DNA of 64,000 bases from Chara braunii (GCA_003427395.1 BFEA01000019.1:3340865-3404864), one strand, 5' to 3'; positions 2,164 to 54,724 are shown, counted from the stretch's first letter. Numbers and translations: made by a program. The notes: a model not told the origin generated them from the letters alone.

Positions 2164-2829
2164 CTCAGGCTTTGGTTGACCCTTCCAAACGCATGCAAAA
2201 CTGCCTTCCTCCCACCTTCCCCCAGTTTATCCCTTTGTCTGCTTTCAGTCAGAATAAAGAAGGAACTTGAACTTCACTCTCACACATTCTTTCCTTTTAG
2301 TCTGATTATGTCTTGAAGAGAAAGTAAAAAGCATAGGGACAACACATGCATACCACAATCATACTCCAGTGAGATAGACAAACATGGGTAGTAGTGGGTA
2401 ATACAGATAAAGATGATTTACTTGAAGGTTCCCTGCATCCAGAACTCCTCCTGAGTTTCGACAGAGCTCCCGCCATCGGTGGGTGGACTCCCCACAGAGT
2501 CTTGACGCGGGCCTACGGGTTGCAATCCCGCCTGCCGCCTTCCTCTTAGAACCGATAGACTAGACTTAGAAGAAGAAGGACAGATGAAGATGGTTATGAG
2601 ACTCTAAGATCCAAGAAAGGTGCGCTCAGACTCGCGTGAGAGGGCCTCGTTACCTTCACTCACCTGAGGGCCCCGCAATGGCGGCCAACTGATAGCTTGA
2701 TCAACGAAGTCAAACTGACGAAGTAACCCCTCCTGACGACCTCCCAATTCGCAACACTAACCCGCCCTATTAGTTCAGTCTGATCTCCTCCTCGTCTCAA
2801 CACCTCCTCCTCAATTTTTAACCCCAACC

Positions 2830-3470
2830 ACCCAGCAGCTGGTAACAACCCCTTAATGGCTCGCAGCAATATGCAGTACCCCGCAACAGCAGCCCGTGGG
2901 CAGCAGCAGTGCACAACGGCACGCCGTAAATCGCCTGTGCACCGCTCGTAGCAGCCAACGACAATAGCAGTTGTACACAGCGGCGGTCAACAGAAATAGA
3001 AGTAGTCTACAGTAGCCATCGTTCGCACACAGTCCACTGGCGCAGCAGTAGTACCCGACGGAAGTCAAGTAGTAATAGTAGCGGCTCCTCCTAGCTGCAG
3101 TTTTTAGTTGCCGTGGTCTTCAGTGGTTGCTCGCAGCTACGGTAACATATGCTAGCAGTAGCCAAATAGTTCACAACGGTCAAACAACAGCATGCAGCAG
3201 AAGCGGTCAGTAGAAACAGCAGCAGTCTGTGCCCAGCCTTCAGCAGCAGCACACAATAGTAGCTTACACACTATCAACCAACAACCGCAGAATGTGTGCA
3301 GTAGGCAGCTGCAATCTGAGCCCTGCCAACAGGTCCTCCAAGCAGCAGTTCATACCACGGTACATCACGGAAGTCTGGCCGTTGTTGTCCATCAGTGCAC
3401 AATAAGCCCCCAATTTGGCAACTGAGATACAGCAGCAGCCGCACTGCATGGGCTATGCCCGACTCTGCTG
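2830..3470. repeat. CAG/GCA-rich low-complexity tract
   Basis: Dense CAGCAGC and GCAGTAG triplets; the ORFs here show only compositional bias. Confidence 0.5.
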
Positions 3471-5338
3471 CATGCTCCAAGCGGGTGAGCCGCCCGGGTG
3501 GCTCACGATTAGGCCGTCACGACTCGAAACTCCTTCGGAAAAGTTGAGGCCCCTCGGGTGACACACCCGCAGACAACCCCACCACTATCTTTGGCGGTGA
3601 ACGGCATGCCCCCGCTCACCTTTTGCCGCAGACTACCCGCTCCCTCTCTCTCTCTCTTGCTCCCGTATCTACCACTCCACTTCCTGAAGCCCAGTCCTGA
3701 GCTCGAGGCCCCCGGTCAATACTACGGCCAAGCGCATCCAGATCACGTCAAGCAGGGTCATGCGCGTGCGCCCGAAGATGCCAGCTTACCGCTTTAATGA
3801 GAGAACTAACTGCGCCAATCTCCCCTGCGTCTCCTTCGTTACCCGGTAAGTGCCTTCCCATCACGACTTCTTTCCCCCTTGGCCTTCAATCGACACCTGG
3901 TCCCACTTCGCGCCCGATTCCTATCCGTTGCCAAAGTTATCGTGACACGGACGACACTCCTCAGAAGCGGCCCTGATTACAAGTTAATCACGACGAGGGG
4001 AAAGACAAGCACGAGCCAGGAGATGAATCTGCGAGCTGCACGTCACCAAAACTGGATCAAAGTATACGGCCACGGCCCCGCTCCACTACTCCCGAAACGT
4101 GCGAGGTGATAGCGAATCCCTCTCCGGAACGTGGGGGGATACACCGCCCCTTCATTCACACGCACGGACTCAGATAGCTAGCTGGTAGCTTCCTCCGTCG
4201 GTATGGTAAGAAACGTACCGGCCCAGTAGGTAAGTCTCCAGCTCTGCAGCTGGCCTCTGTCACTTCCCTCTCTCTCGTACACCCTCGCACCTACCTCAAT
4301 GTCATGTCCGTTCAGAAAAAATGCAAAACCTGAGCGTGAACCTTCCGCCAAAAACTGGGAAGATTCATCGTTATTTCCATAGTCGCTTTCACCTCGCGCC
4401 TGGCCCGTTCTGCACAGCGCATCCCCTACCACTAAGCCTGGCCAGCCCAGTGCTCGAATGCAAGATCTGATGTTACTATCAGACTCGCCATACCTCCAAA
4501 CCCCGAATTTGAATCTTCGTTCGCCCGTTTTCACTAAGAAACGGGCGAAATATGATTTACTTCCTCACCATTTCTACCACTCTCCCGTCACTCTTCTCCA
4601 TACCCTGCATATCAACCTTTCCTTCTCCTCATATTCTACCAATCTACCACTAAAACTAACATCACTAACGCATTCGCCCTACTCTAAAACCCCCGAATCG
4701 AATTCTCCCTCGCTCGTTTTCACTCAGAAGCGAGCAAGATACTCGTCTTTCCTCGTTTTCCTTTTTCACTCCTCGGCATAGCCCGCGCGCTCATTTTCTG
4801 TCCTATCTCCCATTCCACTAATCCCTTGCCAAATCTAGCTCCACCACTACTCTCGCCCGATACCAAACCCCCAACTCCAAGTGTTCTCCTACCTAGTTCC
4901 GCGAAGGAACGGGAGAACAAGCTCTTCCTCCCCCTCGCTCCTTCATTGCTCCGCCATGCCCGATTCCCTTCTCACTGCGCATGTACTTGGCGCAAATTTG
5001 TGTCTAGGTCCATCCCCCCCTTCTTCGTCACTCCTTTCGGTCTGTAATAAGGATAGCGCATCAGCCCGCGGAGCATACATGCAGGCAAACCAATGAAGTC
5101 GAGCAACAAAAAAGGGAAAAGACTGTCGGGGAGGAGTTTTTGCTCACACTCTATACGTGCCATTTTTGCGCAGAGCCGCGCCGATCCCCTCGGCATCATC
5201 CCAGCCTCAACAGATGTCCCGAGGGACCCAAGCCTTGGCAGCGCCGCCCCCCCCGACTTCTCATGATCTGTCCGACCACAGTGCCGCCTTGTCTTAGTGC
5301 ACGCACCTGGCCTTCGTTCTGGGACTTATGGGCACCAG

Positions 5339-5403
5339 CCTTGCGCAGGGGCCATGCTAATCTTCTTTGTATCGTTCCAATTTTAACGGATGTCCCGAAG
5401 GAC
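5339..5403 (-). pseudogene. U6: U6 snRNA 5' fragment (~65 nt)
   Basis: The minus strand reads GTCCTTCGGGACATCCGTTAAAATTGGAACGATACAAAGAAGATTAGCATGGCCCCTGCGCAAGG, the plant-type U6 5' two-thirds. The ACAGAGA box is mutated to ACAAAGA and the 3' end is missing. Confidence 0.92.
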
Positions 5404-5439
5404 TTTGCACCCTCCAGCGCCCGCCCGACAGCCAGCCGA

Positions 5440-5551
5440 CCTGAGGGCCCTTCGGATGGAACCAGGTACTAGAAGGTTCGATTAGTCTTTGCCCCTATAC
5501 CCAAAGTCCGACGAATGATTTGCACGTCAGTATCGCTGCGAGCCTCCACCA
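5440..5551 (-). pseudogene. Cytoplasmic large-subunit (25S/28S) rRNA fragment (~110 nt)
   Basis: The minus strand reads TGGTGGAGGCTCGCAGCGATACTGACGTGCAAATCATTCGTCGGACTTTGGGTATAGGGGCAAAGACTAATCGAACCTTCTAGTACCTGGTTCCATCCGAAGGGCCCTCAGG, matching the conserved LSU stretch ..GACGTGCAAATCG..GGGTATAGGGGCGAAAGACTAATCGAACC..TAGTAGCTGGTTCC... It is an isolated fragment, not an rDNA unit. Confidence 0.9.
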
Positions 5552-5640
5552 AAATGCCCCGAGGCCCTAGCCGGGGCAATGCCCCGTAGCTCTACCAACG
5601 GGCGTTCACCCTTTTTTTTCTTCGGCATCCCGTACACGTA

Positions 5641-5716
5641 CCCGGCCCGGATTCGTACCGGATTCGCCTTGGTCTGCGCTTCAGCGGTTCAGGGGCGTAC
5701 TCACTAAGCTAGGCTC
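5641..5716 (-). pseudogene. Degenerate tRNA-like segment
   Basis: A-box-like TAGCTTAGTG and T-arm/B-box-like CCGGTACGAATCCGG at tRNA-like spacing on the minus strand; no full cloverleaf. Confidence 0.35.
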
Positions 5717-6067
5717 TTGGGTGCCTTCTATACCCACAGCACCGCGCTTAAGCAAAACAACGTCGGGCGCGGCTCCAGCGTAGTTTCAAAACCAGTTTGC
5801 AATTGCACTTCAGGCGCCCCGCAAATACAACACACTCCACCCGACCCTACTGCTGTCTCACGTCCCCGAACAGGATGCGATAAAGAGAAACCGACAAGGG
5901 AAAAATAAGATAAAAATAAACCTAGTATTACCGGGGGACAGCGGGGCTGTTGGCACGTCATCGGTGCCGCAGGTCGGACCCATTGCCGCGCTTACCAAAA
6001 AAAAAAACAGAGGGGGATAGCCCTCGACCCCTCGGCTTCCTTCGCGTCACTCCGCTTCTTCCGCGTT

Positions 6068-6140
6068 GATGCCCGCCGGCCTCGATCCCCGTACCGTCGC
6101 AGTGTCAGTCCAATGTCGTAACCCATAGGGCTAAGCCCAA
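6068..6140 (-). pseudogene. Degenerate tRNA-like segment (Val-like loop CTGACAC)
   Basis: The minus strand has a D-loop-like TAGCCCTATGGGTTACGACA, a 7-nt loop CTGACAC and a T-arm-like CGGGGATCGAGGCCGG; stems are poorly paired. Confidence 0.3.
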
Positions 6141-6660
6141 GCCTGGCACCAACAGGCACATACCTCCTAATAAAGAGGTAGTCCCTGGCTCTTAGGGCCA
6201 AGGAACCGCCCTGGGCCGCTTCTCGGCCTGCGCCTGTACGCATGGCCGCCGAAAGAAAACTCGCGCCGGCCCACCGGCCGTGCCGCGGCTACCCCTATTT
6301 GGCCGTATCCATCACTGTCGATGCCGTCGCCCTCGCACACGCGCTCACCTCGGTCAGACATACCAATCAACAGAAAATATCTCAAATCCCTCCTTGATCA
6401 AAAATAAAAATAAATATTAATAATATTATTAACCAACGACCGATGTCCGCGCCAACTTTATGATAAAAAACAAAACAAAATCACGAGCACCCTAAACCTG
6501 CGCGCCCACGCACTCTTTACTCTAGTCGACCAACCAGTCAACGTGAAAATTACAGACGCGGCTGCGCCTAGCGCAGTATACTTAAACTTTAAACCAAAAC
6601 TATTTTTTACCATTTGCATAAAACAGGGCGGATACCCTTGTAAGGGTATTCGCGCTGACA

Positions 6661-7491
6661 CCGGCGACCCCTCGAATCACATATAAACCCCAGAATCTTA
6701 ATTATCGACACGGCCCACCGGCTCTTCGTCCCGCTAACCGTCAGGTTAGCTTCATCTAACTGTTCCAAGACAGCGTAAATGTCTGTCAGGTGTTGCTCTA
6801 CGAACCTCCTGACGACAGGAGCGACTTCCGTTTCGTCTTTCAGTACCGGTCCTTTTATCGGAAAGTCGTCCAAGAAAACCTCAACTTTATCAGGGATAAA
6901 GTCCTTCAGAACAACTATTATGGCTATCTGAAAGACCGCTACCCCGTTGGTCCATCCCATAGGTACGACCATCATCTGCACTAATCCGAGTGACGTGTGC
7001 ATGGCGGTAAGATGCCTATCTCTCAGGTTTAGGGGTATCTCATCGTACCCTGAAAATAAATCGCAGACAGAATAAATAGATCTGCTTGCCGTCCCTTCCG
7101 CCAATAAATCCGCGTGCGGTATGAAGCCTACATCTCGAATCGTCACCGCATTGACCTTCTGGAGGTCTTGAATCCACTGAATCCTTCCATTAGGCTTCCT
7201 TAAGAAGAACCACCTATTCGCGTACGCACTATCAGATGGCTCTGCCACGTGTGACGCCATCTTCTCCTTGAGAAAGGAAATGACTTCCTCCTTCTCTTTC
7301 TGAGCAAACTTCCACCCAACGTCATTCCAGGGCGTATGCGGAATCGTGTAGATCCTAGCAGGCTTAGCATACCTAGGATCAATTCTTCCTCTTTTTGCGT
7401 CACTGAAGGCTATAGCTTTGTCACAGGTCTTAAGAACTTCCAGCACGCATGCCTTCTCTTGTTCAGTCAAGTTTCCATCTCCTATGTCCAT
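6661..7491 (-). pseudogene. pol: Ty3/Gypsy reverse transcriptase, truncated by the insertion at 6660
   Basis: Motifs PHTPW, EPSDSAYANRWFFLRKPNG, QDLQKVN, CDLFSGYDEI, VPMGWTNG, VFLDDF and ILGF. No RNase H or integrase remains to the left. Confidence 0.92.
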
Positions 7492-7787
7492 CTCCGCTAT
7501 CCTCTTTTCTGTCAGCCTTTGCGGCTCCTTTTTCTTCTTCTCTTTAATCTCGCTAGCGATATCTTCCTCTGATACACCATCTAGTGCGGACCGCTCTCGA
7601 GCTACAGCTGCCGGCTTGACTTTCTGAGCTACTGTCTTGTGTCTTTTTGGTCGCCCCCCGTAAGGGGCTGTGCCTTTAAAAAAGACACAGATATCATTCC
7701 TCCGAATTCCTTATCTTCCGCCTTAGGGTAAGAGCTTCCTCCGACACGGACACGGCTGCCTAAGTCTTCAATCTCTACTATAAGACC

Positions 7788-8462
7788 TTATTCCTCTGTA
7801 AGTAGTGACCCATATTTCTTTTTGCGAAAGCTCAAGGTGCGACCCGCAAGGGTGACCAATTTTTCCGCTGCTAGAATTTCTCTATTCCTCGGATCACGAG
7901 GCTCTACCGTCTCCATCATAATTCGCCCACCATCTGAACGCTTGATGGAAAGTATCTGGCTTCCATCCGGGCGCTCGATAGTGACAGCATGAACATGGCT
8001 CAACCATGTCCGTCCCAGTAGCAGCTCTGAGCTGCAGTCCCGGACTGCAAAAACAGGCATCATGACCCTCAACCCTTCGACCTCGATTGCTGCCTTGTGA
8101 CAAACTCCGGCGACCTTCTGCTTCCTTCCATCAACGGTCTTTATCTCGAATTGGTATGATTTATCAAGGTCTAACCCCAATCGCACGACCAGGTCCTCAT
8201 CTATAATGACAGCCTCGCTGCCATTATCGATTACAGCATGAAGGACTACCTCGTCATTGAGAGTAGTCTGTACTGTCCCACTGCCTAGGATATAGAACTT
8301 GTCAGGAGGCACACCCTCCATCCCATCTAAAAACACCGTTGCTGCGCAGTCCGCCTTAGCGACCACGCTCGATACCGCTACAGAAGGTAGTACCTTCTGT
8401 TTGGTAGCCATCTGGACTTCATCGCTCAGGGGAATGCGCGTCTTGCACGTGATCATCTGCAA
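7788..8462 (-). pseudogene. Retrotransposon aspartic protease
   Basis: AVIDNGSEAVII (D-x-G catalytic motif) and ELLLGRTWL; lies between gag and RT, with frameshifts on both sides. Confidence 0.85.
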
Positions 8463-8468
8463 CTCATC

Positions 8469-28305: not shown

Positions 28306-28649
28306 ATAATTTTGCGCAAACCGCAAAATACAAATTTTCACAAAATCTTGATCTCGTTTTCTCGTTTTTGTTTCTTCTCTTTTTCTTTCCTTTTTGTTTT
28401 TTTCTTCCCCCACTGAAAACGGGCAGGTACCTGGCAGGTCGGGAGGAGTAGGTCCCCACCTCTCTTATCCTCTCCCATTTCTCTCTCTCTCTCTCAACCT
28501 TTTCAACTCCCTCTCTCTCACAAGCGCATGTTGTGAGCCACGAGATTTGGATATTCGTGCCAAATGGAGGTGGGAACCCATTGTGGTTGTTCCAACCACG
28601 AGGCAGGTAGTCTCGTTTTTTTTTTTTCTTTCTTTTTTGGTATAACCAT

Positions 28650-29617
28650 TGGTATAAGCCAACGGCCGTCGCCTCTAATGTCATTACCCGATTCAAGCCC
28701 TTACCATTAACCTGTTCCGAGTTCGATTCCCGAAGGAATCGAAAAAAAAAATTAAAAAAAATTGGATCATTTTTCGATTTATGTGTGTTATCCTTGCCTA
28801 GGGGCCATGTTAATCTCGCGCGGCCGATTTCGGTGGCCGCGTGATCTCGATGATCCTACGGTCGAAATTGACCCTGCCACATGCCTCTTGGCCAGGCCGC
28901 TCCCAAAAGGAGCTAGCCCAGGTAGCGGGACGTCGGGCTTGAACCTTATACTGCAAGGCAAGAGTCTGGCATATCAACGTCGTCAACCTATTGGGTTAGT
29001 TCCTATTTCACACCGAATAGGAGTAGATCTTCCTTATGAAGAGCCGAAACCCATCGTAGGTGACCGGCCCACAGTCCGACAGACTCCTACCTGCCCCTAC
29101 TACTCAATCGACTGATCGCCGACCCCCGGAGCAAAAGACAGTCTATCCTAACGAGGTAAGATATAGGCGCCCCCAATTCACTGGCGTCGGTTCGAGTCCT
29201 GGCTGGGGAATTCCTTAAATAAAACGAGTTTGAATACCCACGCTCTTGCGTCTCGATCGTCAACGCCACTTGGCTATTTTTTTTGTCTTTTTTCTTTTAA
29301 CCGTGAATCATGCGGCGGTTAAGCCACGCGTCACAATTGTAAATAAAATAAGTTTATACTTAGTACTGCGGCCTCGCCAAACGTGGAGCCGGTTGGTCAT
29401 ACCACCAATCCTTGTCCACACCCTCGTAGGCCGCAATCTTCCCAACTTTAGATAAAACATTTCAGTCCTTTGGTTGCCTGTCAGGTATGAATAGACTATG
29501 GCAAATACCTCATTCTCATCAAGTCAACTCATTCAAATAAAATCATACCGACAGTCGGACAGTGCCCGACATTGAAAATCCCGAGCAGATACCCTTGTGA
29601 GGGTTTGTGCTCTGACA
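28650..29617. mobile_element. Second LTR-like segment, related to the one ending at 6660 (left boundary unknown)
   Basis: Ends GATACCCTTGTGAGGGTTTGTGCTCTGACA, 25/30 identical to 6631-6660. It interrupts a Gypsy pol frame right after EIPPMRG and contains a U6 fragment. Confidence 0.55.
28754..28816 (-). pseudogene. U6: U6 snRNA 3' fragment (~60 nt, including the T-run)
   Basis: The minus strand reads AGATTAACATGGCCCCTAGGCAAGGATAACACACATAAATCGAAAAATGATCCAATTTTTTTT, against plant U6 AGATTAGCATGGCCCCTGCGCAAGGATGACACGCA(C/T)AAATCGAGAAATGGTCCAAATTTT. Most differences are G>A. Confidence 0.85.
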
Positions 29618-32600
29618 CCACGCATTGGAGGGATCTCGTTGTATGAGAAATACGGAGGAAAGACGTTGTGGTACTCTAGAATCAGGTCACGAACGACGAG
29701 TTCTAAGTCGGTCGTAAACCTCGTGAGGTCCTCAGCGCCTGCATCAACATAAGACGTAAGTGTGGACTCGCCAGTGGATGGCGGAGGAACCGGGAATGTC
29801 GAAGGGATATCCGCGGGCTGAGGGGTGGATGTAGAGATGGGAGCCACAAAAATGGAGGAAGGTTCGGGGGGATCAGGCTCCAAGGAGATCTGCTCAATGT
29901 TTGTACAGAGGGGATCGTACTGAAGAAGATCCATGATATTCACCGAGTACAGAGTGACGTACTCCTAACCCAGGAAGTGAGCAAACTAGTGAGGGGAGGT
30001 GAAAGCAATGTCTGGGTAGGACCTGGAAGAACGAGGGTCCTGGGGAGGTAGGTCATGAGGGGTATCGGCTGTGGTGCCAATGAAGGGGACTCGATAAGTC
30101 TGACCACACTTCGTTTTGAGAACAAGTGTCCCGGTCACCCATTTGGCCTCTTTGTCATGGAACTTGCGAGACCAAGGAGTGTCAAGGATAAATTCGTACT
30201 CAGTCTCCAACACGTCGAAGCATGCAGGGGAATGGTAGCGCGGAGGCATCTTGGTACTATTTGATGGTTGAAGAGTCAGGAAAAAGTGGAGGTCGGGGAC
30301 CGTCTGATCGAAGTAGTGTTGCGTCTTGAGATAGGAGAGCGAGACAAGCTTCCTCAACCACACGAGGGTGAACGACATATCCCTGTGAGCCGGAGTCCCA
30401 TAAAGTGCGGTACACCCTCATAAATATTCCAAGGCGAATAAAAATTATGAGGAAGCGATCAAGGTCCGAGAGCAGGGTGTGAAGACGACGTAAGATGTTT
30501 ACGTGTCTCGTGAGTCGCTCCTGACGAGGCTGAAGAATGCTCAAATCTAGGACAGATGACACAGCGTCATTGTGAGTCGCTAGCTGAGCGCTATAACGAG
30601 CTGTGCGGATGGCGCGACATGCCGGAAGTCTCGGCGGGGAAGGACTAGATGTGGCGGTCTGTCGTGGGGTAGACGGTACCTCGCCAGACAACTGGGCAGA
30701 GAGAACTGCGTCTATCGTGTTCTGAGGATCCTCTGGTGTCGTAGGCAAAGGGGCAAACCACGACTCGATACTCGGGAAACCGGTTACAAGCGAGGTCTCA
30801 ATTGTACAGTGCACCGTGGCAAGCTGGATGGGACTGGCCGGACGGGGCGGGGGGGGACTGAAATCGGCGCTAACGAGAAATGTCAGCATAGTGTCGATCA
30901 AAGGTGGCATGTCATAGAAACCGTGAGGAGGTGTGTCCGTCCTGGCAGCAATGAAGGCAACCGCAATGGACCTCGAGGGCAACATGCTCCTTAGGGGATA
31001 GAGCTCCGCGAGGAGGGACGAAACTCTGCGGGAGGTCTACCTTAGGAACAACGAACGTGTGGGCGCCAGCCTGTGCACGACGATTGCGAGCACGACCCAT
31101 GATGGTCATTGCCATCTACAACCAGTCGGCCATTGGAACAGTCTCGTCATCCAAGTGGTATTGGATGACATCCAAAAGCTGGAGGTCCTTGGGGGCGTCC
31201 CCATGGGTAGGGTCGACCTTTGCCGTAGAGTCGATGTTGAACTCGAGGGAAATGTAGCACTGAGAGAATGACGTTCCAGAATGAGTTGAGCGGTGAAAGC
31301 TGCCGGAGAAAGAGAAACGGTCTCGAGTGGTGCGACGTGACTGGGAGGTGGCAAAGTGTCGCGAAGAGGACGGGGCATTGGATAAGCGACTCCGCATCCT
31401 CTGATACTATCGAGCAGCCTCGTACGCCTGCTCGGTGGACGCAGATGTTTGTCTCCAAAGCTCTATGCGGTAATCAGGGGACTGACTGATGAAAAACCTA
31501 TTGGTCATAAGAACCTCCGATAGGAGCGTTGCATCACAAATAAGGCGGGCGTCTCGAAACACCCGGATGTGACACTTTAGGGCTGCCGGTGCGGAGGACC
31601 CGACCCATCGCGTCTAGGTGACCCTATCTAAGGCGCCGGTCACGTTGTGCCGAGCGCCTTAGCAGTCATGAAGGAAGACAATGAAGTCAACGAAAGTGAG
31701 AGTCACCTATGCCGCTATGCGAGTACGATAGGTATAATAACTGGTTGTGAGCCACAGCCGCTGGTAAAAGGTCCAGCAAAGGTGGAGGCAACGACCACAG
31801 ACACCTGTGACGGAGTGGCGAGGTGGGAGGGTAGAGGCAGAAAAGCAGATCGAGGGAAACGAGTTTGCACTGCCGAAGTAGGGGTAGTGAGGGAAGATGA
31901 AGGGTGAGCAGCATGTGAAGGGTGAGGTTGGTGAGTATCTCTGCCTATATCTGTACCATGGTGGCCTGCAAGGTAGCCACTTGCTGGGTGCGCGAGGTCG
32001 GAAGTGGGGGAGTCAGAGAGGGCACCTTAGCGGGGGGAGGAGTAACGAGCTGTAGGGAACCTTGAGGTAGGAGTGAGGGTATAGGAGGAGGAGGGAGGGT
32101 TCCGGGCCGTAATGCCGCGACCAGTGCAGGAAGCTTGGAAGCAACACTGAGACGGGTAGATGAAACTGCTTGGTCAGATGTCGATATCGGGGTGGCAACA
32201 CCTACGGCGGTGGCCGAAGCGGCAGAGGACGATGAATGTGTCGCAACAGATAGTATGGTCTGAGGGGCAGCGACACTCACCATTGCGGAAGGGGAATTTT
32301 GGGCTTGTCCCCGAAGGGAGGAGGAACCACCATGTCTTTGTGTCTGAAGTTATGGGGAACCTGACTGGGAACCGGTAGGGGATGGGGTGTGGGAGTGGTG
32401 GGGAGAGCGATGAGGAGAACCCTTGATGCGGTGGACTTCAAGAGCGAGCGCATTGAGTTGCTCTTGCATGGATGCGAGCGCATCAAGTCATGCTTGCATG
32501 GGTGTGAGCACGTCAAGTCGCGCTCACATGGGTGCGAGCAGGGCTGCGAGGATGGTCTCAAGGTCCCTAGGTGCTGAACCCTGTGTTACCACCGGAGCGG

Positions 32601-32700
32601 GCGTCTGAGAGGTGGATAGCACCACATCGATTTCCTCGGGTATGCTCCCATCCATGCAGGGTGGAGGAAGGGGGTAGACATGGCGATAGGTGGAAAGAGA
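29618..32700 (-). pseudogene. Decayed Ty3/Gypsy gag-protease and start of RT
   Basis: LWDSGSQGY (aspartic protease) at ~30400, frameshifting to FDVLETEYEFILDTPW, then EYHNVFP..EIPPMRG, typical of the pre-RT PPxR motif. Upstream fragments are Pro/Ser/Thr-rich. Confidence 0.7.
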
Positions 32701-33809
32701 GATGCGAAAGGAGATGGGTTGCGGTGTGGAGAAAGAGACCCACCGTTGAGAGGGGGGGGATCGCGTGAGCGGAATGGGTAGTCGTAAGTCATCTCGCCTC
32801 GGAGTCGGCGGACCACGTGTGAGATGGTAGCATGAACCTGGCCGAGGGGAAAGGATCCATTGGGGTCCAGGTTGCCCGACGTGAGGAGCCGGGAAAGAAG
32901 GGGATCAGAAGAACCTTAAACCTTAAGAAAACCCTAACCGGCGTTTGGGGAGTTAGGGTATCGTAGCGGTGACCTAATTGAGAAAAGAAAATAACAACCA
33001 TAGAGGAGAGGAGAGGGGAAAAAATAGTAAAATTTTGAGATTAAAAAAAATATAATAATAATAAAAATAAAAATAAAAAGAAATAAGCAAAAGCTGAGGA
33101 GAACAATAATATTTTTATGAAATTTTCGGTAACATTTTTGCGCCAAGAGAAAGGAGAGACCAAAAAAAAAAAACTATGTTTCAAACTGCCACAAATTAAA
33201 ATTTAGAGAAAAATAAATAAAAACATAAAGAAATTGAGAGGTGGCGGACAGTGAAGAGAAAACTAAGTTTTGAATTCAAAACAAAAATCGACAACATTTT
33301 GTTACCCCCATGGGTCGAAGTGTTCTGTCAAAAAGAATGACTAAGTAAAAAATGGAAAATTTTGCCAACATTTCACTACCCCCAAGGGATTAAAATGTGC
33401 TGGAAGGAGTGAGTAGGGAGAGATGATAAAATTTTGGCAGCACTTCGTTACACCCCACGGGGTAAAAATGTGCGCCGGTAGCAAAGATAGCTAAGTCCTA
33501 ACAAGATATAGAGGTGCTATAAAAAAAATCAAAATTTAAGAATAAATAAAAAATAATAATAAAATCAATCAAAAAATGAAAAAAAAAGTAGTGAATGAGA
33601 TAATTTGAATTTCTGGGGAAAAAGAGGAAATTTAAATCAAAGAGAGAGACAAAAGAAGAAAAACAAAAAACTTCAAGGTTGTGGGGAGGGAAATGAAAAA
33701 AGTGATGAAGAAATAGAGAAATAAGTGAGGATGAGAAAAAAAACTGAAGTGGGAGGTGAAAGAGATGATGGGGTTATAGTTGGAGGAGGAAAGGGAGAGA
33801 GGAGGGTGA

Positions 33810-35778: not shown

Positions 35779-36535
35779 TTCCTTAGTCCTTGCACGGTCG
35801 TGCTGCTCAGGAAACAAGGTGACCAGGGCGGCCCGACTGGTAGCCTAGAAAAAACATATATGGATCAATCAGTGGATCAATCAATTGATCAATCAAATAA
35901 ATAAATAATATTAAAAAAACTTGTTGAACACGCAGGTGTATGTGTGTTCGCATGTTTGTGTGAGTGTGTGTACGTATGTGAATGTGCGTGTGTATGTGTG
36001 TGTGTGTGTATGTATCTGTGTGCGTGCGCGGGGCCCACCAATCAATCAATCAATCAATCAATCGATCAATAAGTCAAATATATAAAAAAGTTAAAAAATA
36101 AAAAACAGTGTATCGAACGTGCACGGGTGAGTGTGTGTGGGGGGGGGGGTGAGGGGAGGGGCAGACCGCCCTACAACCAATCAATCATCTACTTTGATTT
36201 ATTGATTCATAATGTTAAATAGTCTAAAAAAAAAATAAAAAAAAATTGAAAAGCAAAAAAAAAGGGACATTTTTCTGTTCATTCGACTCCTCAATTTTTA
36301 ACGATATATATACATTTTGTTTTCCTGAATGAAATGATATAAAAATTGGAAGGTAGGATCTTTACTCGATGGACTATCAGTGAAAAAACAAGATTAAAAT
36401 ATTATTTAGGCCTCCAAACAGGGTTACGAACCCCAGCGGGAATGGACCCCGAATGGTGGCTCGAACGCCTAAACGTTTGGGGGTTGGCCCGGAGGCCTTT
36501 GAACGTTTCCTCTGGTAACCCTATGTACATATATA

Positions 36536-36567
<32 letters not shown>

Positions 36568-39500
36568 CAGGGTTGTCAGGCCAAACATACGGAGGCCCCT
36601 AAGCTGACCCCCGAACGTTCGGGCGTTCGGGTCCTCGTACGGGGCCCGAACCTGAAGGGGTTCAAACCTCACAAACCAATATTTTGACACCTAAATATAT
36701 ATATATACAGGGTCACCAGCCCGTACGTACGGAGATCCCCGGGCAGACCTCCGTACGTACGGGTGTTCGGGGTCCCGTACGGAGTCCGAACCCGACAGCG
36801 TTCGGCCCCCGCCAAAAATTATTTCGGGTCATAAAAATAATTATTGTTTTCTGAATGTTTTTTTATGCGTTTTCTATAACGTGAGGTACATGCTTGCAAA
36901 TTTTCAAGTTATTTTGCCAAGCCAAATAAGAATTAAAAATCGCCAAAGATGGCGGTGTCAAAACGTGCTCGCCCACGTATTTCTTCAGTTCTTACTTTTT
37001 GTTTTCACTTTAGTTCGGGGTCTAAATACTTTTATTACTTTTTGAAACTTTTTTAGTGGGTTTTGTATTATGTGAAGTACACATCTGTAAATTCTCAGGG
37101 CATTTAGCTATGCCAAAAAAAAATGAAAAATCGTCAAAGATGGCGGAGTCGAAAACATGCTCGCGCACTCACTAAATTTAATTCTCTTTTTATTTTTATT
37201 TATTTTTATTATTAGTATTTATTTTCCGGATTTCATTTTTAATTCAAATTTGGTAAGGAATTAGGATGTAATGCTCAGGCAAATCTTGTTTAATTTAATT
37301 TTCTCCATAACATATCTTTTTTTTCAGATTTTTTTGATGAACTTTATTTTATTTTTTATTTTTTTTTTGGGTCCGCGTCCGGCCGAACGGCCGAACGCAT
37401 CCCCAAGGGGTCCCATACGTTCGGGCGTTCGGTTTCAGGCGTTCGGCCCATCTTGAACGCTGGTTACCCTGTATATATATATATATATTTTTTATTTTTT
37501 TTTTGGGTCCGCGTCCGGCCGAACGGCCGAACGCATCCCCAAGGGGTCCCATACGTTCGGGCGTTCGGTTTCAGGCGTTCGGCCCATCTTGAACGCTGGT
37601 TACCCTGTATATATATATATATATTTTTTATTTTTTTTTTGCGAGTTCTTTGTGATGTAAGGTACGCCCCTTTTAATTTGGAAGCTATTCTGTTTAGCCA
37701 AAAAAATTGAAAAATCGGCGGGGATGGTGGTGTCAAAACTTGCTTGCCCACTCACTTAGTTGTTTTTTTTTTTTTTTCACTTTTTGTTTTTCCTTTATTT
37801 CGGGGCATGAAAAAAATTATGATTTTTTTAAACTTTACTTGCAGATTCTCAATAACGGAAGATACACATACATAAAATTTCAAGGCATTTTACACAGTAA
37901 AACAAAAATGAAAAATCGCCAAAGATGGTGGTGTAAAAAACGTGCTTTCCCACACAATAATTTCATTCTCGTTTTTTTTTTTTTTTTTTTTTTTNTTATT
38001 ATTTAGTTTAGTACTTGATTTTTATTTCAAATTTGGTAACGAATTTGGATGTAACGTTAAGGCAAATGTTGTTTAGTTTATTCTTCTACAGAACATATAT
38101 TTGTTTTAGACTTTTTGGATTTTTTTTTTTTGTTTGTTTTTTTGTTTTTGGTCCACGTTCGGCCGAACAACCGAACGCGTCAAGAGGGGGTGCCAAATGT
38201 TTGGGCATTCGGGTTCGGACGTTCGGCCTATCCCGAACACCGGTTATATATATATCCGGCGTTAAGGACGGGCCGACTGCCCGAACGTATGGGACCCCTT
38301 GGGGATGCGTTCGGCGGTTCGGGCCGAACCCAGACCCAAAAAAAAAAACAAAAAACAAAAAACAAAACCATCAAACAAATCTGAAAAAAAGATATGTTAT
38401 GGATAAAAATAAATTAAACAAGATTTGCCTTAGCATTACATCCGAATTCCTTACCAAATTTGAAATAAAAATAAAATACGGAAAATAAATACTAATAATA
38501 AAAATAAATAAAAATAAAAAAGAGAATTAAATTTAGTGAGTGCTCGAGCACGTTTTCGACCCCGCCATCTTGGGCGATTTTCCATTTTTTTTTGGCATAG
38601 CAAAATGCCCTTAAAATTTACAAATGTGTAGTTCACATAATACAAAACCCACTAAAAAAGTTTCAAAAAATAATAAAATTGTTTAGAACCCGAACTAAAG
38701 TGAAAACAAAAAGTAAAAAATGAAAAAATATGTGGGCGAGCACGTTTTGACACCGCCATCTTTGGCGATTTTTAATTCTTATTTGGCTTAGCCAAATGAC
38801 TTGAAAATTTACAGGCATGGACCTCACGTTATAGAACTAAAAAAAAAAACTTCAGAAAAAAATAATTATTTTTAGGCCCCGAAATAAGTTTTGGCGGGGG
38901 CCGAACGTCGTCGGGTTTGGACCCCGACCGTACGTACGTAGGTCTGCCTAGGGACCTCCGTACGTACGGGCTAGTGACCCTGTATATATATATAGAGAGA
39001 GAGAGGGTAACCAGCGTTCGGGACGGGCCGAGCGTCCGAACCCAAACGCCCAAACGTATGGGACCCCTTGGGGATGCGTTCGGCCGTTCGGGCTGAACGC
39101 GGACAATAAAAAAAAAATAAATAAAAAAAAAAAATCTGGAACAAAGATATGTTATGGAGAAAAATAAATTAAACAAGATTTGCCCGACCTTACATCCGAA
39201 TTCCTTACCAAATTTGAAATAAAAATAAAATACGAAAAATAAATACTCGTAATAAAAATAAATAAAAATAAAAAGAGAACTAAATTTAGTGAGTGAGCGA
39301 GCGTGTTTTCGACATCGGCATCTTTGGTGATTTTTGATTTCTTTTTGGCATTGACAAATGCCCTAAAAATTTACAGATATGTAGCTTACATAATCAATAA
39401 CTCATTAAAACATTTTCAAAAAATAATAAAATTTTTTAGGCCCCGAAATAAAGTGAAAACAAAAAGTTAAAAGTGAAAGAAAACAAAATAGTGAGTGGGC

Positions 39501-39782
39501 GAGCACATTTTGACACCCCCATCTTTGACGATTTTTAACGTTTTTTTGGCTTAGCGAAATGACTTCAAAATTTATAGGCGTGTAGTTTACATCATAGAAA
39601 ACTCAAAACAAAAAAATCAAAAAAAAAACTTATTTTTAAGCCCCAAAAGTTTTTTTGGCGGGGGCGGAACCTGGAGGTGTTCGGCCCCCGAACGGGACCC
39701 CGAACACCCGAACGTTCGGGGGCCAGCCCGGGCGCCCCCGAACGTTCGGTCAGGTAACCCTGTATATATATATATGTATATA

Positions 39783-39828
<46 letters not shown>

Positions 39829-40611
39829 CATATATATATATATGTATATATATATATGTATATATATATATATAGGGTCACCAGCCCGTACGTACGGAGG
39901 TCCTCGGGCAGACCTCCGTACGTACGGGCGTTCGGGGTCCGTACGGGGTCCGAACCCGACAGCAAACGGGCCCCGCCAAAAATGATTTCGGGGCCTAAAA
40001 GTAATCATGTTTTGCTGAATGTTTTTTTGTGAGTTCTCTATGACGTGAGGTACATGCCTGCAAATTTTCAAGTCATTTGGCGAAGCCAAATAAGAATAAA
40101 AAATCACCAAAGATGGCGGTGTCAAAACGTGCTCGCCCACGTATTGTTTCACTTTTTACTTTTTGTTTTCACTTTAGTTCGGGGTCTAAACAATTTTATT
40201 ATTGTTTGAAACTTTTTTAGTGGGTTTTGTATTATGTGAAGTACACATCGGTAAGGGCATTTAACGATGCGAAAACAAAATGAAAAATCACCAAAGATGG
40301 CGGTGTCGAAAACATGCTCGCGCATTCACTAAATTTAATTCTCTTTTTATTTTTATTATTAGTATTTGTTTTCCGTATTTTATTTTTACTTCAAATTTGG
40401 TAAGGAATTCGGATGTAATGTTCGGGCAAATCTTGTTTAATTTATTTTTCTCGATAAAATTGTTTTGATTTTTTATTTTTTTTTATTTTTTTTATTTTTT
40501 TTTTAATCCGCTTTCGGCCCGAACGGCCGAACGCATCCCCAAGGGGTCCCATACGTTCGGGCGTTCGGGTTCGGGCGTTCGGCCTGTCCCGAACGCCGGT
40601 TACCTTGTATA

Positions 40612-40645
<34 letters not shown>

Positions 40646-41960
40646 NNNNNNNNNNNNNNNNNNNNNNNNNNNNNNNNNNNNNNNNNNNNNNNNNNNNNNN
40701 NNNNNNNNNNNNNNNNNNNNNNNNNNNNNNNNNNNNNNNNNNNNNNNNNNNNNNNNNNNNNNNNNNNNNNNNNNNNNNNNNNNNNNNNNNNNNNNNNNNN
40801 NNNNNNNNNNNNNNNNNNNNNNNNNNNNNNNNNNNNNNNNNNNNNNNNNNNNNNNNNNNNNNNNNNNNNNNNNNNNNNNNNNNNNNNNNNNNNNNNNNNN
40901 NNNNNNNNNNNNNNNNNNNNNNNNNNNNNNNNNNNNNNNNNNNNNNNNNNNNNNNNNNNNNNNNNNNNNNNNNNNNNNNNNNNNNNNNNNNNNNNNNNNN
41001 NNNNNNNNNNNNNNNNNNNNNNNNNNNNNNNNNNNNNNNNNNNNNNNNNNNNNNNNNNNNNNNNNNNNNNNNNNNNNNNNNNNNNCAAAAAATAATTAAA
41101 AATCGGCAAAGATGGCGGTGTCGAAAAGGTGCTGGCACACTCACTCATTTTAATTCTCTTTTTATTTTTTCTTATTTTTATGAAGTTTTATCATATTGTT
41201 TATTTTCTGTATTTGATTTTTAATTCAAATTAGGTAAAGAATTTGGATGTAGTGCCCAGACAAATGTTGTTTAGCTTATTTGTCTCCATAACGTTGTTTT
41301 TTTACGGAAGTTTTTGAAAACGTTTTTTTTTTTGTTTTTTTTTTTTTTTTTTTTTTCCGCGTTCGGCCCGAACGATCGAACGCCTTCCGAAGGGGTCCCG
41401 TACGTTCGGGCGTTCGGCCCGTCCCAAACACCGGTAACCCTGTATATATATATATATCGTCACAAACATATATATAGACAAACAAACAGTCTCATACAAA
41501 TAAACATTTATACTAACACATGTAATATACAAAGTTACAAACGTGTGTTAATACACGCATGCACTCCTTATCCAAATATACATATGTAGATATGAGGGGA
41601 AGAGAGAGGGGGGAAAAAAAAGTAGGAAATGAAACAGTTAAGACTAGGGGGTAGGATAATATATTGTTTATCAAATGATAGATTGACTTTATATTATCTC
41701 CTTCATTAAATATCAACCCACACCATGCATTAACCTTTTTATCTTTCTCATAAAATATCAACCCACACCTATTTATAACCACCTCTCTTTACAAAATGAA
41801 CCTATATCTATCAATTAACCTTTCTTTTTCTCTTTTCTCTTTTTCACCGCAACCTCAATAAAATAATAACATGAATTACTGCTTTACCTAGGCTACAATA
41901 CGGGCCGCCCGGGTCACCTTTTTTTCCCGCATCGCCCGACCGTGTAAGGACCAGGGAAGC
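35779..41960. mobile_element. Element bounded by ~70-bp imperfect inverted repeats, enclosing the MITE array
   Basis: TTCCTTAGTCCTTGCACGGTCG..AAGGTGACCAGGGCGGCCCG..GTAGCCTAG (35779-35848) matches the reverse complement of 41889-41959. No TSD identified. Confidence 0.5.
36419..41442. mobile_element. Array of ~750-bp MITE copies separated by (TA)n tracts
   Basis: TIR CAGGGT(C/T/A)ACC..GGT(T/A/G)ACCCTG. Copies at 36708-37471 (+), ~37640-38245 (+, partial), ~38257-38982 (-), 39004-39762 (-), 39873-40607 (+) and ~41086-41442 (+, after gap). Subterminal CCGAAC/GTTCGG motifs. Confidence 0.88.
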
Positions 41961-43284
41961 TTCTAGTAAAAAAAAAGAAAAAAATCAAAACAATCCGAAA
42001 AACAAACTATGTTATGAAAAAAAATAAATTGAACAACATTTGCCTCAGAGTCACATCGAGATTTTTTACCAAATTTAAAATAAAAAATAAAGTAAAAAAA
42101 AATATATCTATTTTTTAATTTTTTATTTCTTTACTTTTTTTTTGCCTGGCCGAGCAAGTGGCCCCAGACCACTCTGGTAGCCTAGATTTTTACTTATTTT
42201 TCATTCTCTATAAAAAAAAAAATAGGTTCATTCTCTACATAGTTATATATTACATAATCATATATAACCTTAAGGTATGTTTTTTTGTTTCCATTGTCGT
42301 TCATGTCTCCAAATATGTACAGATGGTACAGATAGAGATTGCATGGATTCCAGAATGAAAAAAACAAAATGCGAACAAATTGTAATTTTCAATAAAATCA
42401 CACGGTATACATAGAGTAGTGTACAAGTACAAAATCACGTTCATCGCCGGTGGGTAAGGCACCCCGACCGGTTTCGACCGCCGCCACGCGGTCTCCTTAG
42501 GGGGAATCCACCCAACTTCACCCGTATGCATATCCTGCCTGCCACAGTCCCGCTTCCGCCACGTCTACTCCGACCATCTCCGGAGATGGTGGAGTTCGTC
42601 AACGTCAGACGCAAAAAAAAACATTGACTACGCTGTTCTTGTACTTATCCTCGTCCCGTCGTAGCCTAGTGTCGTATGCTGTCGTAGCGTTGCCCCGGTA
42701 CCTGAAAGACATTAAAAAACACAAAAAATGAAAAAACTCAATCAGGCCACCTGTTCTAAGCCTGTGGTACCCAATCACACTCACTAATCCTACTCCGAAA
42801 GCCAAACTGCCCGTTCAGGTCGCCTGTTCGAGACTTGATACTAAGTCGCCTCCCGAAATCGAACTATCGGTTCCGGTTGACTGTTTGAAACCATACCTTA
42901 GCCTCTGCTAAAAATGCTACCGGTTCAGGTCATCGGTTCGATCCTTGATACCGAAATTTTTACCGACAGAACTCTACGAGACATCCCTGTCCCTACATAC
43001 ATCCCATAGCTCTCTCAGGTTCAGTATGGAGTGCCCCACAAATATTCCCTATCCCTGACTGCATGTCCTACACGCCAGTGAAATCATCATCACTCCATCA
43101 GGCTAGCATTGTTGTAATAAAGGATGACAAACCACACCACGCCAAACCACACAAAACGACCTTGATCTACAACTAATTATACAAGTTAACTAACTGACCA
43201 TACTTCTTATTCCTCGCCGCAAATCCTTTGTTGCGTAACTCCATTAGGCTAACATTGTTGTAATCAAGGGTGACAAACCACACC

Positions 43285-49020: not shown

Positions 49021-49455
49021 ATCAATTGGCTATTTGAATGAGCAAAAAAGAAAGATGAATAAATATAAAAGAATCTTGACCTTTTGGCTAAGATCTAGTG
49101 TTCTATCTACTCCTATCAATCCACTATATGATCCTCGGTTCATTGAGGCAAAGAAAAGAGAAAAAAAAAACAAAGACCAAGCAATACTTTTGTCCCCTAA
49201 CTTCAATATTTTATTTATTTACTTTATTACGTGAATGATATTGAAATTTTGTTGTGGGTAACTTACGCATATTGGAAAATATGGGTACAAGAAACTAAAA
49301 CTATTGAGCCCTAAATTATATTATGGCGGGAGTCAAAGTTACCGGACTTCAGCCCCTTGACCAAATGTTTGGGGTCCCCGAACGTTCCGTGGGGCAACGC
49401 TGGTGCGCATGTCAAAGCGCACATGTGAATACTCTTGCACATATGTATCTGTGGG

Positions 49456-49876: not shown

Positions 49877-50411
49877 NNNNNNNNNNNNNNNNNNNNNNNN
49901 NNNNNNNNNNNNNNNNNNNNNNNNNNNNNNNNNNNNNNNNNNNNNNNNNNNNNNNNNNNNNNNNNNNNNNNNNNNNNNNNNNNNNNNNNNNNNNNNNNNN
50001 NNNNNNNNNNNNNNNNNNNNNNNNNNNNNNNNNNNNNNNNNNNNNNNNNNNNNNNNNNNNNNNNNNNNNNNNNNNNNNNNNNNNNNNNNNNNNNNNNNNN
50101 NNNNNNNNNNNNNNNNNNNNNNNNNNNNNNNNNNNNNNNNNNNNNNNNNNNNNNNNNNNNNNNNNNNNNNNNNNNNNNNNNNNNNNNNNNNNNNNNNNNN
50201 NNNNNNNNNNNNNNNNNNNNNNNNNNNNNNNNNNNNNNNNNNNNNNNNNNNNNNNNNNNNNNNNNNNNNNNNNNNNNNNNNNNNNNNNNNNNNNNNNNNN
50301 NNNNNNNNNNNNNNNNNNNNNNNNNNNNNNNNNNNNNNNNNNNNNNNNNNNNNNNNNNNNNNNNNNNNNNNNNNNNNNNNNNNNNNNNNNNNNNNNNNNN
50401 NNNNNNNNNNN

Positions 50412-51813: not shown

Positions 51814-52981
51814 NNNNNNNNNNNNNNNNNNNNNNNNNNNNNNNNNNNNNNNNNNNNNNNNNNNNNNNNNNNNNNNNNNNNNNNNNNNNNNNNNNNNNNN
51901 NNNNNNNNNNNNNNNNNNNNNNNNNNNNNNNNNNNNNNNNNNNNNNNNNNNNNNNNNNNNNNNNNNNNNNNNNNNNNNNNNNNNNNNNNNNNNNNNNNNN
52001 NNNNNNNNNNNNNNNNNNNNNNNNNNNNNNNNNNNNNNNNNNNNNNNNNNNNNNNNNNNNNNNNNNNNNNNNNNNNNNNNNNNNNNNNNNNNNNNNNNNN
52101 NNNNNNNNNNNNNNNNNNNNNNNNNNNNNNNNNNNNNNNNNNNNNNNNNNNNNNNNNNNNNNNNNNNNNNNNNNNNNNNNNNNNNNNNNNNNNNNNNNNN
52201 NNNNNNNNNNNNNNNNNNNNNNNNNNNNNNNNNNNNNNNNNNNNNNNNNNNNNNNNNNNNNNNNNNNNNNNNNNNNNNNNNNNNNNNNNNNNNNNNNNNN
52301 NNNNNNNNNNNNNNNNNNNNNNNNNNNNNNNNNNNNNNNNNNNNNNNNNNNNNNNNNNNNNNNNNNNNNNNNNNNNNNNNNNNNNNNNNNNNNNNNNNNN
52401 NNNNNNNNNNNNNNNNNNNNNNNNNNNNNNNNNNNNNNNNNNNNNNNNNNNNNNNNNNNNNNNNNNNNNNNNNNNNNNNNNNNNNNNNNNNNNNNNNNNN
52501 NNNNNNNNNNNNNNNNNNNNNNNNNNNNNNNNNNNNNNNNNNNNNNNNNNNNNNNNNNNNNNNNNNNNNNNNNNNNNNNNNNNNNNNNNNNNNNNNNNNN
52601 NNNNNNNNNNNNNNNNNNNNNNNNNNNNNNNNNNNNNNNNNNNNNNNNNNNNNNNNNNNNNNNNNNNNNNNNNNNNNNNNNNNNNNNNNNNNNNNNNNNN
52701 NNNNNNNNNNNNNNNNNNNNNNNNNNNNNNNNNNNNNNNNNNNNNNNNNNNNNNNNNNNNNNNNNNNNNNNNNNNNNNNNNNNNTGGCTGCCCGTCATGA
52801 GGGCATATGGCACAGGGCCCGACCGTCAGTCCAAGGAGGGCGTCCTGGAAAGTTGTGGTCACTACCGACAAGGGCCTGCAGAAAATATTTTTTGGCCGAG
52901 GGGCGCGACAAGGTAAATCGGCCGTCGGAGGGGCGCGACAGGAAATAATGCAAATTACAGGGGCGCCAGCCAAATTTTCCC
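50875..52981. mobile_element. Mutator-like (MULE) non-autonomous element
   Basis: ~85-bp TIRs starting GGGAAAATTTG(T/G)CTGGCGCCCCTGTAATTTGC; 9-bp TSD TTAATAAAA at 50866-50874 and 52982-52990; no transposase visible. Confidence 0.9.
51047..51747 (+). other. Ala/Ser/Lys-rich repetitive ORF inside the MULE (possible captured fragment)
   Basis: 15/18-bp repeats encode AATSS, ATKPF and AAKRAS, followed by a non-repetitive tail; the frame runs into (CT)n and a gap. Confidence 0.4.
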
Positions 52982-54663: not shown

Positions 54664-54724
54664 GCAGCCATGGGGCTTGAACCCACAACCTCCTGAATGC
54701 CACTTGCATGCCTAACCAACTGCC
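54664..54724 (-). pseudogene. tRNA-derived SINE-head-like fragment
   Basis: The minus strand reads GGGCAGTTGGTTAGGCA...GGTTGTGGGTTCAAGCCCCATGGCTGC, with A-box-like and B-box/T-arm motifs at tRNA spacing. Confidence 0.45.

Follow-up and report, generated by a model that had tools for sequence, protein, structure and literature searches.

Pieces of U6, 25S rRNA and tRNA-type RNAs in a high-copy long terminal repeat of Chara braunii: a case for repeated capture of host RNAs

Sequences of host RNA genes are carried in the long terminal repeats (LTRs) of several retrotransposon families. In Cassandra and Ajax, which belong to the miniature terminal-repeat retrotransposons (TRIMs), a structural RNA of the host, 5S ribosomal RNA (rRNA), has been fixed in the LTR family (PMC10886601, PMC10946416), and the Helenus TRIMs, as described by Kojima in 2024 (PMC10886601), measure less than 1000 bp as a whole and bear a single type of RNA, transfer RNA (tRNA). 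Each of these known small-RNA-bearing LTRs holds one captured gene of RNA polymerase III (Pol III). Fragments of U6 (its 5′ part) and of 28S rRNA have also been copied by retroelement reverse transcriptase into chimeras with long interspersed elements (LINEs), including those made by twin priming, and into tailless retropseudogenes, with inverted small nuclear RNA (snRNA) pieces among them; these copies are described as single insertions with target-site duplications (TSDs), made by target-primed LINE reverse transcription (PMC4476161, PMC5322556). Retroviral particles, in turn, are reported to package U6, transcripts of the rRNA locus and pre-tRNAs (PMC4931115). Here we analyse a stretch of 64,000 nucleotides from Chara braunii (GCA_003427395.1 BFEA01000019.1:3340865-3404864; hereafter the window), in which a segment at 5124-6660, likely an LTR and here called LTR A, shares with Helenus, Cassandra and Ajax the presence of RNA-gene sequence. 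The reading that we favour, at a probability of about 0.5, is that the U3 of a high-copy Chara-type LTR retrotransposon took up host U6, 25S and tRNA-type RNAs repeatedly in the course of reverse transcription.

The U6 5′ fragment that the original prediction placed at 5339-5403 (minus strand) was recovered by Rfam, with a match that extends over 5301-5403. The 65 nt at its 5′ end (5339-5403) are near-perfect and the remaining 38 nt (5301-5338) are decayed; the latter show a weak likeness to the U6 3′ half in a second LTR, LTR B (19 of 36 positions, 46/2000 shuffles), and are possibly a decayed U6 3′ part. A short U6-like stub noted earlier at 5213-5227 turned out to be the start of a 65-nt decayed copy (5163-5227), which shares 44 of 64 positions with the fresh copy, a score not reached by any of 2000 shuffles; the 3′ side of this old copy does not match the U6 3′ half (1305/2000 shuffles). 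The old copy has drifted toward G+C (AT>GC at 15 of 33 positions versus GC>AT at 5 of 31, p 0.015), and drift in the same direction appears in 5301-5338 (p 0.053). Being opposite to ordinary methylation decay, this tendency of the LTR A relics may reflect a mutation bias at the replication stage of the element. Next to the U6 relic lies a fragment of the large subunit (LSU) rRNA, 25S, which scores 58.5 bits in the Rfam scan of the window and 70.1 bits in a narrower scan. Its identity is as first proposed, whereas its extent is about 5428-5551, rather than 5440-5551, so that no more than 24 nt, instead of 36, separate it from U6; even these 24 nt align to the LSU model, at low confidence, and there is further weak LSU similarity at 5575-5617. 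Relative to the functional RNAs, the U6 and 25S pieces hold both substitutions and indels. The 25S piece is known from one copy only, and a search of viral contigs yielded no eukaryotic LSU reference.

The tRNA-like pieces were assessed with a profile of 113 of 255 tRNA genes, drawn from 123 viral loci that were retrieved with a generic motif and are unrelated to the window; the profile gives eight matches in the 64 kb at E up to 10. One of these, at 6087-6136 on the minus strand (E 0.025), falls in the module at 6068-6143, and thus one of the three tRNA-like pieces of the original prediction is found directly. A motif from the T-arm side of this module, taken from the read consensus, lies inside tRNA genes at six of eight viral loci (five Ala, one Val) and a motif from the D-loop side inside tRNA-Gln genes at four of 14; accordingly, to judge from its sequence, the module looks like a Gln/Ala patchwork. 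Direct alignment of the module to tRNAs involves some circularity, the tRNAs in question having been retrieved by the module motifs, and the 113-gene profile serves as the independent test. Folding of 6068-6143 gave no tRNA fold, ARAGORN and Rfam called no tRNA in LTR A or LTR B, and Rfam reported no 5S, other snRNA or ribozyme in either. The other two pieces, at 5641-5716 and 6180-6236, match neither the 113-gene profile nor any of 13 isotype profiles. The former, now delimited as 5641-5722, is recognisable through its sister copies only: depth peaks at 6.8-8.6 thousand, and in RNA reads the piece breaks off sharply at 5722/5723 into mixed flanks (agreement 0.41-0.70) and has a box-B/T-loop motif on the other side. 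Since the piece and its LTR flank occur together in 21-30 contigs, which run on at 5727 and 5731, the piece is common to sister LTRs. It is followed by an A run and has the dispersed copies, the sharp tRNA-like 5′ end and the varied flanks of a short interspersed element (SINE). A hairpin is present at 6180-6236, yet 19 of 200 shuffled sequences fold equally well, and we rejected this piece as a tRNA relic.

That LTR A belongs to a repeated family is apparent from DNA reads of two runs of one sample, which gave about 6000 contigs each on 5560-7360 at 80% likeness. Summed depth in the last bin of LTR A reaches 390-430 thousand, compared with 8-20 for single listed contigs; summed depth does not equal copy number, and the right end is clearly very highly repeated. 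In the bin 6109-6169 depth is 62-89 thousand versus 200-700 in most flanking bins, and at 6107 a variant T-arm half takes over in 94-95 contigs. Moreover, of the 15 joints shown (of 68), four link the module with LTR sequence further to the right, and three of the four reach the LTR end (6092>6625, 6141>6601, 6145>6608 and 6140>6258, each present in one contig of either DNA run). Given this depth, far above that of the flanks, together with the joints to the LTR end, the module at 6068-6143 is a conserved island in many diverged LTRs. In its right end and in this module the locus is therefore not a one-off; the original prediction had named one-off retrocopies, lacking in other copies of the LTR, as the finding that would speak against it.

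Table 1. Positions of LTR A, LTR B, their component pieces and the adjoining host element in the window
Feature	Position	Strand	Basis or description
Polypurine-tract-like run	5106-5123	+	adjoins the TG of LTR A; 16/18 purines
LTR A	5124-6660	+	1537 bp, TGTC...GACA; likely 3′ LTR of a plus-strand element
Old U6 5′ copy, decayed	5163-5227	-	44 of 64 positions as in the fresh copy; Rfam score 20 bits across 5128-5227
U6 relic	5301-5403	-	Rfam 68 bits, E 4.6e-16
25S (LSU) rRNA fragment	5428-5551	-	Rfam eukaryotic LSU, model ~866-990
Decayed tRNA-derived, SINE-head-like repeat member	5641-5722	-	read depth, loose ends, box-B motif
T11 run, possible Pol III terminator	5997-6007	-	sequence; 60 nt downstream of module 6068-6143
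Conserved tRNA-like module	6068-6143	-	Gln-like D loop/anticodon 5′ side and Ala-like T arm; box A/box B spacing
Hairpin, tRNA origin unsupported	6180-6236	-	z -1.41; 19/200 shuffles fold as well
Conserved R-U5-like right end	6475-6660	+	read depth 17-430 thousand; terminal hairpin ~6624-6657
Host element, Ty3/Gypsy-type protease and reverse transcriptase	6661-8468	-	Pfam RVT_1 and Asp_protease; reverse transcriptase end cut by LTR A
LTR B	28438-29617	+	blastn to the end of LTR A; terminal hairpin and end common to both; left boundary uncertain
U6 3′ part with U tail	28756-28817	-	in LTR B; model 46-105; Rfam 38.9 bits, E 6.5e-08
tRNA-like module like 6068-6143	28925-29010	-	in LTR B; 51/78 identity, 4/2000 shuffles
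tRNA-like piece, opposite strand	29144-29206	+	in LTR B; tRNA profile E 0.079; box A/B scan

A second line of evidence comes from LTR B, a diverged relative within the window that was chosen by its end and not by U6 (Table 1). The terminal motif occurs at only two places in the window, in LTR A and in LTR B, which otherwise share few short local blocks and are barely alignable. In the terminal hairpin, one of 11 pairs of LTR B is changed on both sides relative to LTR A, and covariation across these two sequences is not above that of shuffles. Yet all three Rfam U6 matches in the window lie inside one or the other of these LTRs, which make up 4.5% of the sequenced bases. The U6 copy of LTR B shows five G-to-A and zero A-to-G changes as counted on the alignment, unlike the old copy in LTR A, and the sequence before its core does not match the U6 5′ part (1768/2000 shuffles). 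LTR A keeps the 5′ part of U6 fresh and LTR B the 3′ part; separate captures appear to fit better than one ancestral capture. In addition, LTR B gives two tRNA profile matches (E 0.079 and 1.1), and its module resembles the one at 6068-6143 more closely than does a control, an unrelated tRNA-like head (31/2000 shuffles). Recurrence of RNA-derived pieces in relatives, as originally proposed, thus holds for LTR B and, in the case of the tRNA-like modules, for many contigs; as a trait of the family, the unusual feature is real for the tRNA-type modules and, judged from two diverged copies, for U6 as well. Like LTR A, LTR B adjoins an apparent decayed minus-strand gag-pol region (29618-33000, minus strand), seen by eye and giving no Pfam match.

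The description of 5124-6660 as an LTR-like unit also stands. Its ends have the form TG...CA with short inverted termini (TGTC at 5124, GACA at 6660), and the right end is confirmed by 106 and 111 contigs of the two DNA runs that diverge there into mixed flanks. The right ~190 bp are conserved and include a terminal hairpin (~6624-6657; z -4.73, with 0 of 200 shuffles folding as well), as opposed to the variable, U3-like left part. The purine run in front of 5124 ties for the top rank among 195 TG sites in 2200-6660, and the commonest sequence past 6660 in other copies is not purine-rich and has no primer-binding site (PBS) of TGG type. Given this polypurine tract (PPT) on the left and the non-purine sequence on the right, the plus strand is the most likely direction of the element. 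We consider it quite likely that 5124-6660 is the 3′ LTR of such an element, its left part being variable and U3-like and its right part conserved and R-U5-like. All RNA pieces would then lie in U3, and the supported ones are probably antisense to the predicted transcript. This reverses the sense-strand capture assumed in the original prediction, and antisense pieces are not expected from ordinary minus-strand template switching.

The right neighbour of LTR A supports placing an insertion junction at 6660. The top four protein matches of the host pol are 83-86% identical to Chara braunii, and all 13 of its matches are Chara braunii. Relatives of this pol run on into RNase H, but the alignments end at 6658-6661 and are not taken up again at any other place in the window, so that the right end of LTR A coincides with an insertion junction. 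A solo LTR was rejected for 5124-6660 because there is no TSD and the host pol fails to resume on the left, and a Helitron end was rejected because the read-defined terminus is ...CA at 6660. The terminal motif of the LTR was not found in JGI metagenomes or GTDB genomes. Upstream of LTR A, hairpin-bearing repeats at 4485-4552, 4674-4741 (75% alike) and, by eye, ~4860-4930 probably sit in the 3′ untranslated region of the element. The common sequence past the LTR end in other copies resembles, as a direct repeat, two spots in 5637-5664, at the 3′ end of the SINE-like piece (two mismatches in 11 each); the likeness may be accidental, or a single small RNA might pair with both.

Under the repeated-capture reading, abundant host RNAs would be co-packaged in the particle, as in retroviruses, and would anneal to the element RNA, through microhomology at first and through older antisense relics later. 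An annealed RNA would join the minus strand and be copied into the plus strand, in the way that PBS regeneration copies the primer tRNA, and an antisense piece would be fixed once the strand jumps back to LTR sequence. Plus-strand synthesis in Ty3 does copy into the primer tRNA, and the U3 of Ty3 pairs with tRNA arms (PMC5371799). The same RNA would be drawn in anew by its older antisense relics, and such relic-guided annealing would leave one U6 copy next to another and fresh stretches alongside decayed ones. The route would further yield antisense orientation without a TSD; indeed, none of seven tested pieces has a flanking direct repeat of at least 7 nt (the longest are 0-6 nt, within chance). 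Most pieces would be passengers that drift, whereas the module at 6068-6143 is probably under selection. Its box A/B spacing and the T11 run 60 nt downstream suggest a short antisense Pol III unit, and the module would most likely be a type-2 Pol III promoter that yields an antisense RNA of ~140 nt ending at the T11 run; alternatively, it might be a tRNA docking site in U3, like the U3 site of Ty3. The Pol III promoter role once suggested for the pieces in general is thus plausible for this one module and not for the others. A bolder and rather doubtful extension would see in U3 a self-renewing array of antisense handles that binds U6, rRNA and tRNA, draws them into the particle and is re-copied from them, the duplexes serving in priming, dimerisation, packaging or shielding and being kept by positive feedback.

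Several observations weigh against repeated capture during reverse transcription. The lack of TSDs is weak evidence for old insertions, since age may have erased them, and in Ty1 and Ty3, according to PMC5371799, the copied primer sequence is not inherited. No paired LTR, 5′ LTR or TSD of the LTR A element and no coding region of its own were found in the 64-kb window, and the plus strand of LTR A lacks a complement of the common post-LTR sequence that would allow self-priming. The claim that all pieces lie on one strand holds for the supported pieces of LTR A and fails for LTR B, where the tRNA-like pieces occupy both strands. In its behaviour the piece at 5641-5722 resembles the head of a SINE, and it may have come in as an ordinary insertion. 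The read comparison covers 5560-7360, to the right of the U6 and 25S pieces. No listed contig spans this interval, and at three of 40 listed places (5841, 6042 and 6229) all contigs of both DNA runs differ from the window; hence this exact copy is not shown in these runs. RNA reads (6% and 12% of two oligo-dT runs, in which non-polyadenylated Pol III RNA is not visible) could be placed in 46 and 540 cases, with 0 and 6 at 99% likeness and about equal numbers on the two strands. Because 90-100% of the placed reads continue unlike the window sequence, they derive from other copies, and there is no sign of a transcript of this locus. No RNA data set is listed for the LTR A sequence, a result that carries no weight on expression.

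The alternative that survives best is that LINE-made insertions, namely a tRNA-derived SINE and 3′-truncated, tailless retrocopies of U6 and rRNA, landed singly in LTR DNA that was later amplified, which would make the LTR a burial ground for such pieces and not a device that captures them. We regard this as possible, if somewhat unlikely, for the locus as a whole and as likelier for 5641-5722 than for the other pieces, given the sharp 5′ end, the mixed flanks in RNA reads and the following A run. The best tRNA profile match of the window, at 54670-54722 (minus strand, E 0.00018), is another SINE-like head, probably a SINE of another family, and a weak Exo_endo_phos endonuclease match at 56624-57175 (plus strand) is likely a LINE remnant. 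In mammals, moreover, L1 has made 3′-truncated retrocopies of snRNAs and 28S (PMC4476161, PMC5322556). Random landing would also account for the pieces on both strands of LTR B, although not for the single strand of the supported pieces in LTR A or for the confinement of all three U6 matches to the two LTRs. Whereas 70-100% of truncated mammalian snRNA copies are described as having TSDs (PMC4476161), all seven pieces lack a flanking repeat of at least 7 nt, and the conserved module at 6068-6143 is left without explanation.

What template switching ordinarily yields is capture in the sense orientation. LINE examples of it are given in PMC4476161, and the supported pieces would be sense captures if LTR A were the 5′ LTR of a minus-strand element, whose tRNA-like modules would, as in Helenus, drive its own transcription. 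Both the host element and every supported piece of LTR A do lie on the minus strand, and the apparent left end of LTR B has no purine tract. Nevertheless, we consider this arrangement unlikely: there is no tRNA-type PBS to the left of 5124, where a purine tract stands on the plus strand instead; the part of the PPT would fall to the common sequence beside 6660, which is not purine-rich; and Pol III would be stopped by the T11 run that follows the main module at 60 nt on the minus strand. Finally, an assembly chimera or single-locus accident that joined the U6 and 25S pieces in an ordinary LTR could be imagined from the gaps in the scaffold, from the presence of only 34-43% of sampled 31-mers in four DNA runs of one sample and from the lack of a spanning contig over an interval that excludes these pieces, but it is very improbable given their divergence from the functional RNAs, the decayed second U6 next door, the recurrence of U6 in LTR B and the coverage of all 30 bins of 5560-7360 by many contigs.

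Elsewhere in the window, direct and inverted repeats cluster together with (TA)n tracts at 36400-42500, in the manner of miniature inverted-repeat transposable elements (MITEs). A weak U2 snRNA match at 49068-49190 (plus strand; 25.8 bits, E 0.36) is under the family threshold, and a long inverted repeat at 49877-50411 / 51814-52784 was rejected as an artefact of N gaps and GA/CT tracts.

A literature search, made without Repbase, most subscription papers and supplements, brought up, among the papers listed, no LTR with U6, LSU and tRNA pieces together and no study of Chara repeats; a few old human snRNA copies are reported to be tied to LTR elements (Giles 2004, as cited in PMC4476161). If repeated absorption of several RNA classes by one LTR family is true, such LTRs would constitute a fossil record of particle packaging and show a route by which LTR elements gain RNA modules. 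The present results also call for caution in genomes of the Chara type, where matches to U6, rRNA and tRNA can be LTR cargo. In the Ty3 bipartite primer-binding site, U3 sequence is complementary to the T and D arms of the tRNA, which recalls the LTR A module; however, the complements of Ty3, as described in PMC5371799, are short and directed to one primer tRNA, whereas the module of LTR A is ~75 nt long, mixes Gln and Ala, and stands in an element with no tRNA-type PBS seen. A non-tRNA PBS is known in chromoviruses of the Tcn1/Tf1 type (PMC6317226).

Compared with the LINE-made chimeras and retropseudogenes, LTR A differs in that pieces of several RNAs are stacked in a multicopy LTR with no evident TSDs. 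It is likewise unlike Cassandra and Ajax, having no 5S match and an rRNA piece that comes from the 25S transcribed by RNA polymerase I, for which no internal promoter is known. With Helenus and TRIMp3, LTR A shares a conserved tRNA-derived box A/B (6068-6143), and a similar module stands in LTR B. At 1537 bp, however, one LTR alone exceeds the size of under 1000 bp that characterises these TRIMs, and it combines U6, 25S and several tRNA-type pieces, probably in antisense orientation; the main text of PMC10886601 does not mention "snRNA". In Helenus the promoter is described as driving the template RNA of the element itself, whereas the module of LTR A, with a T11 run 60 nt downstream, would be antisense if the plus-strand orientation holds.

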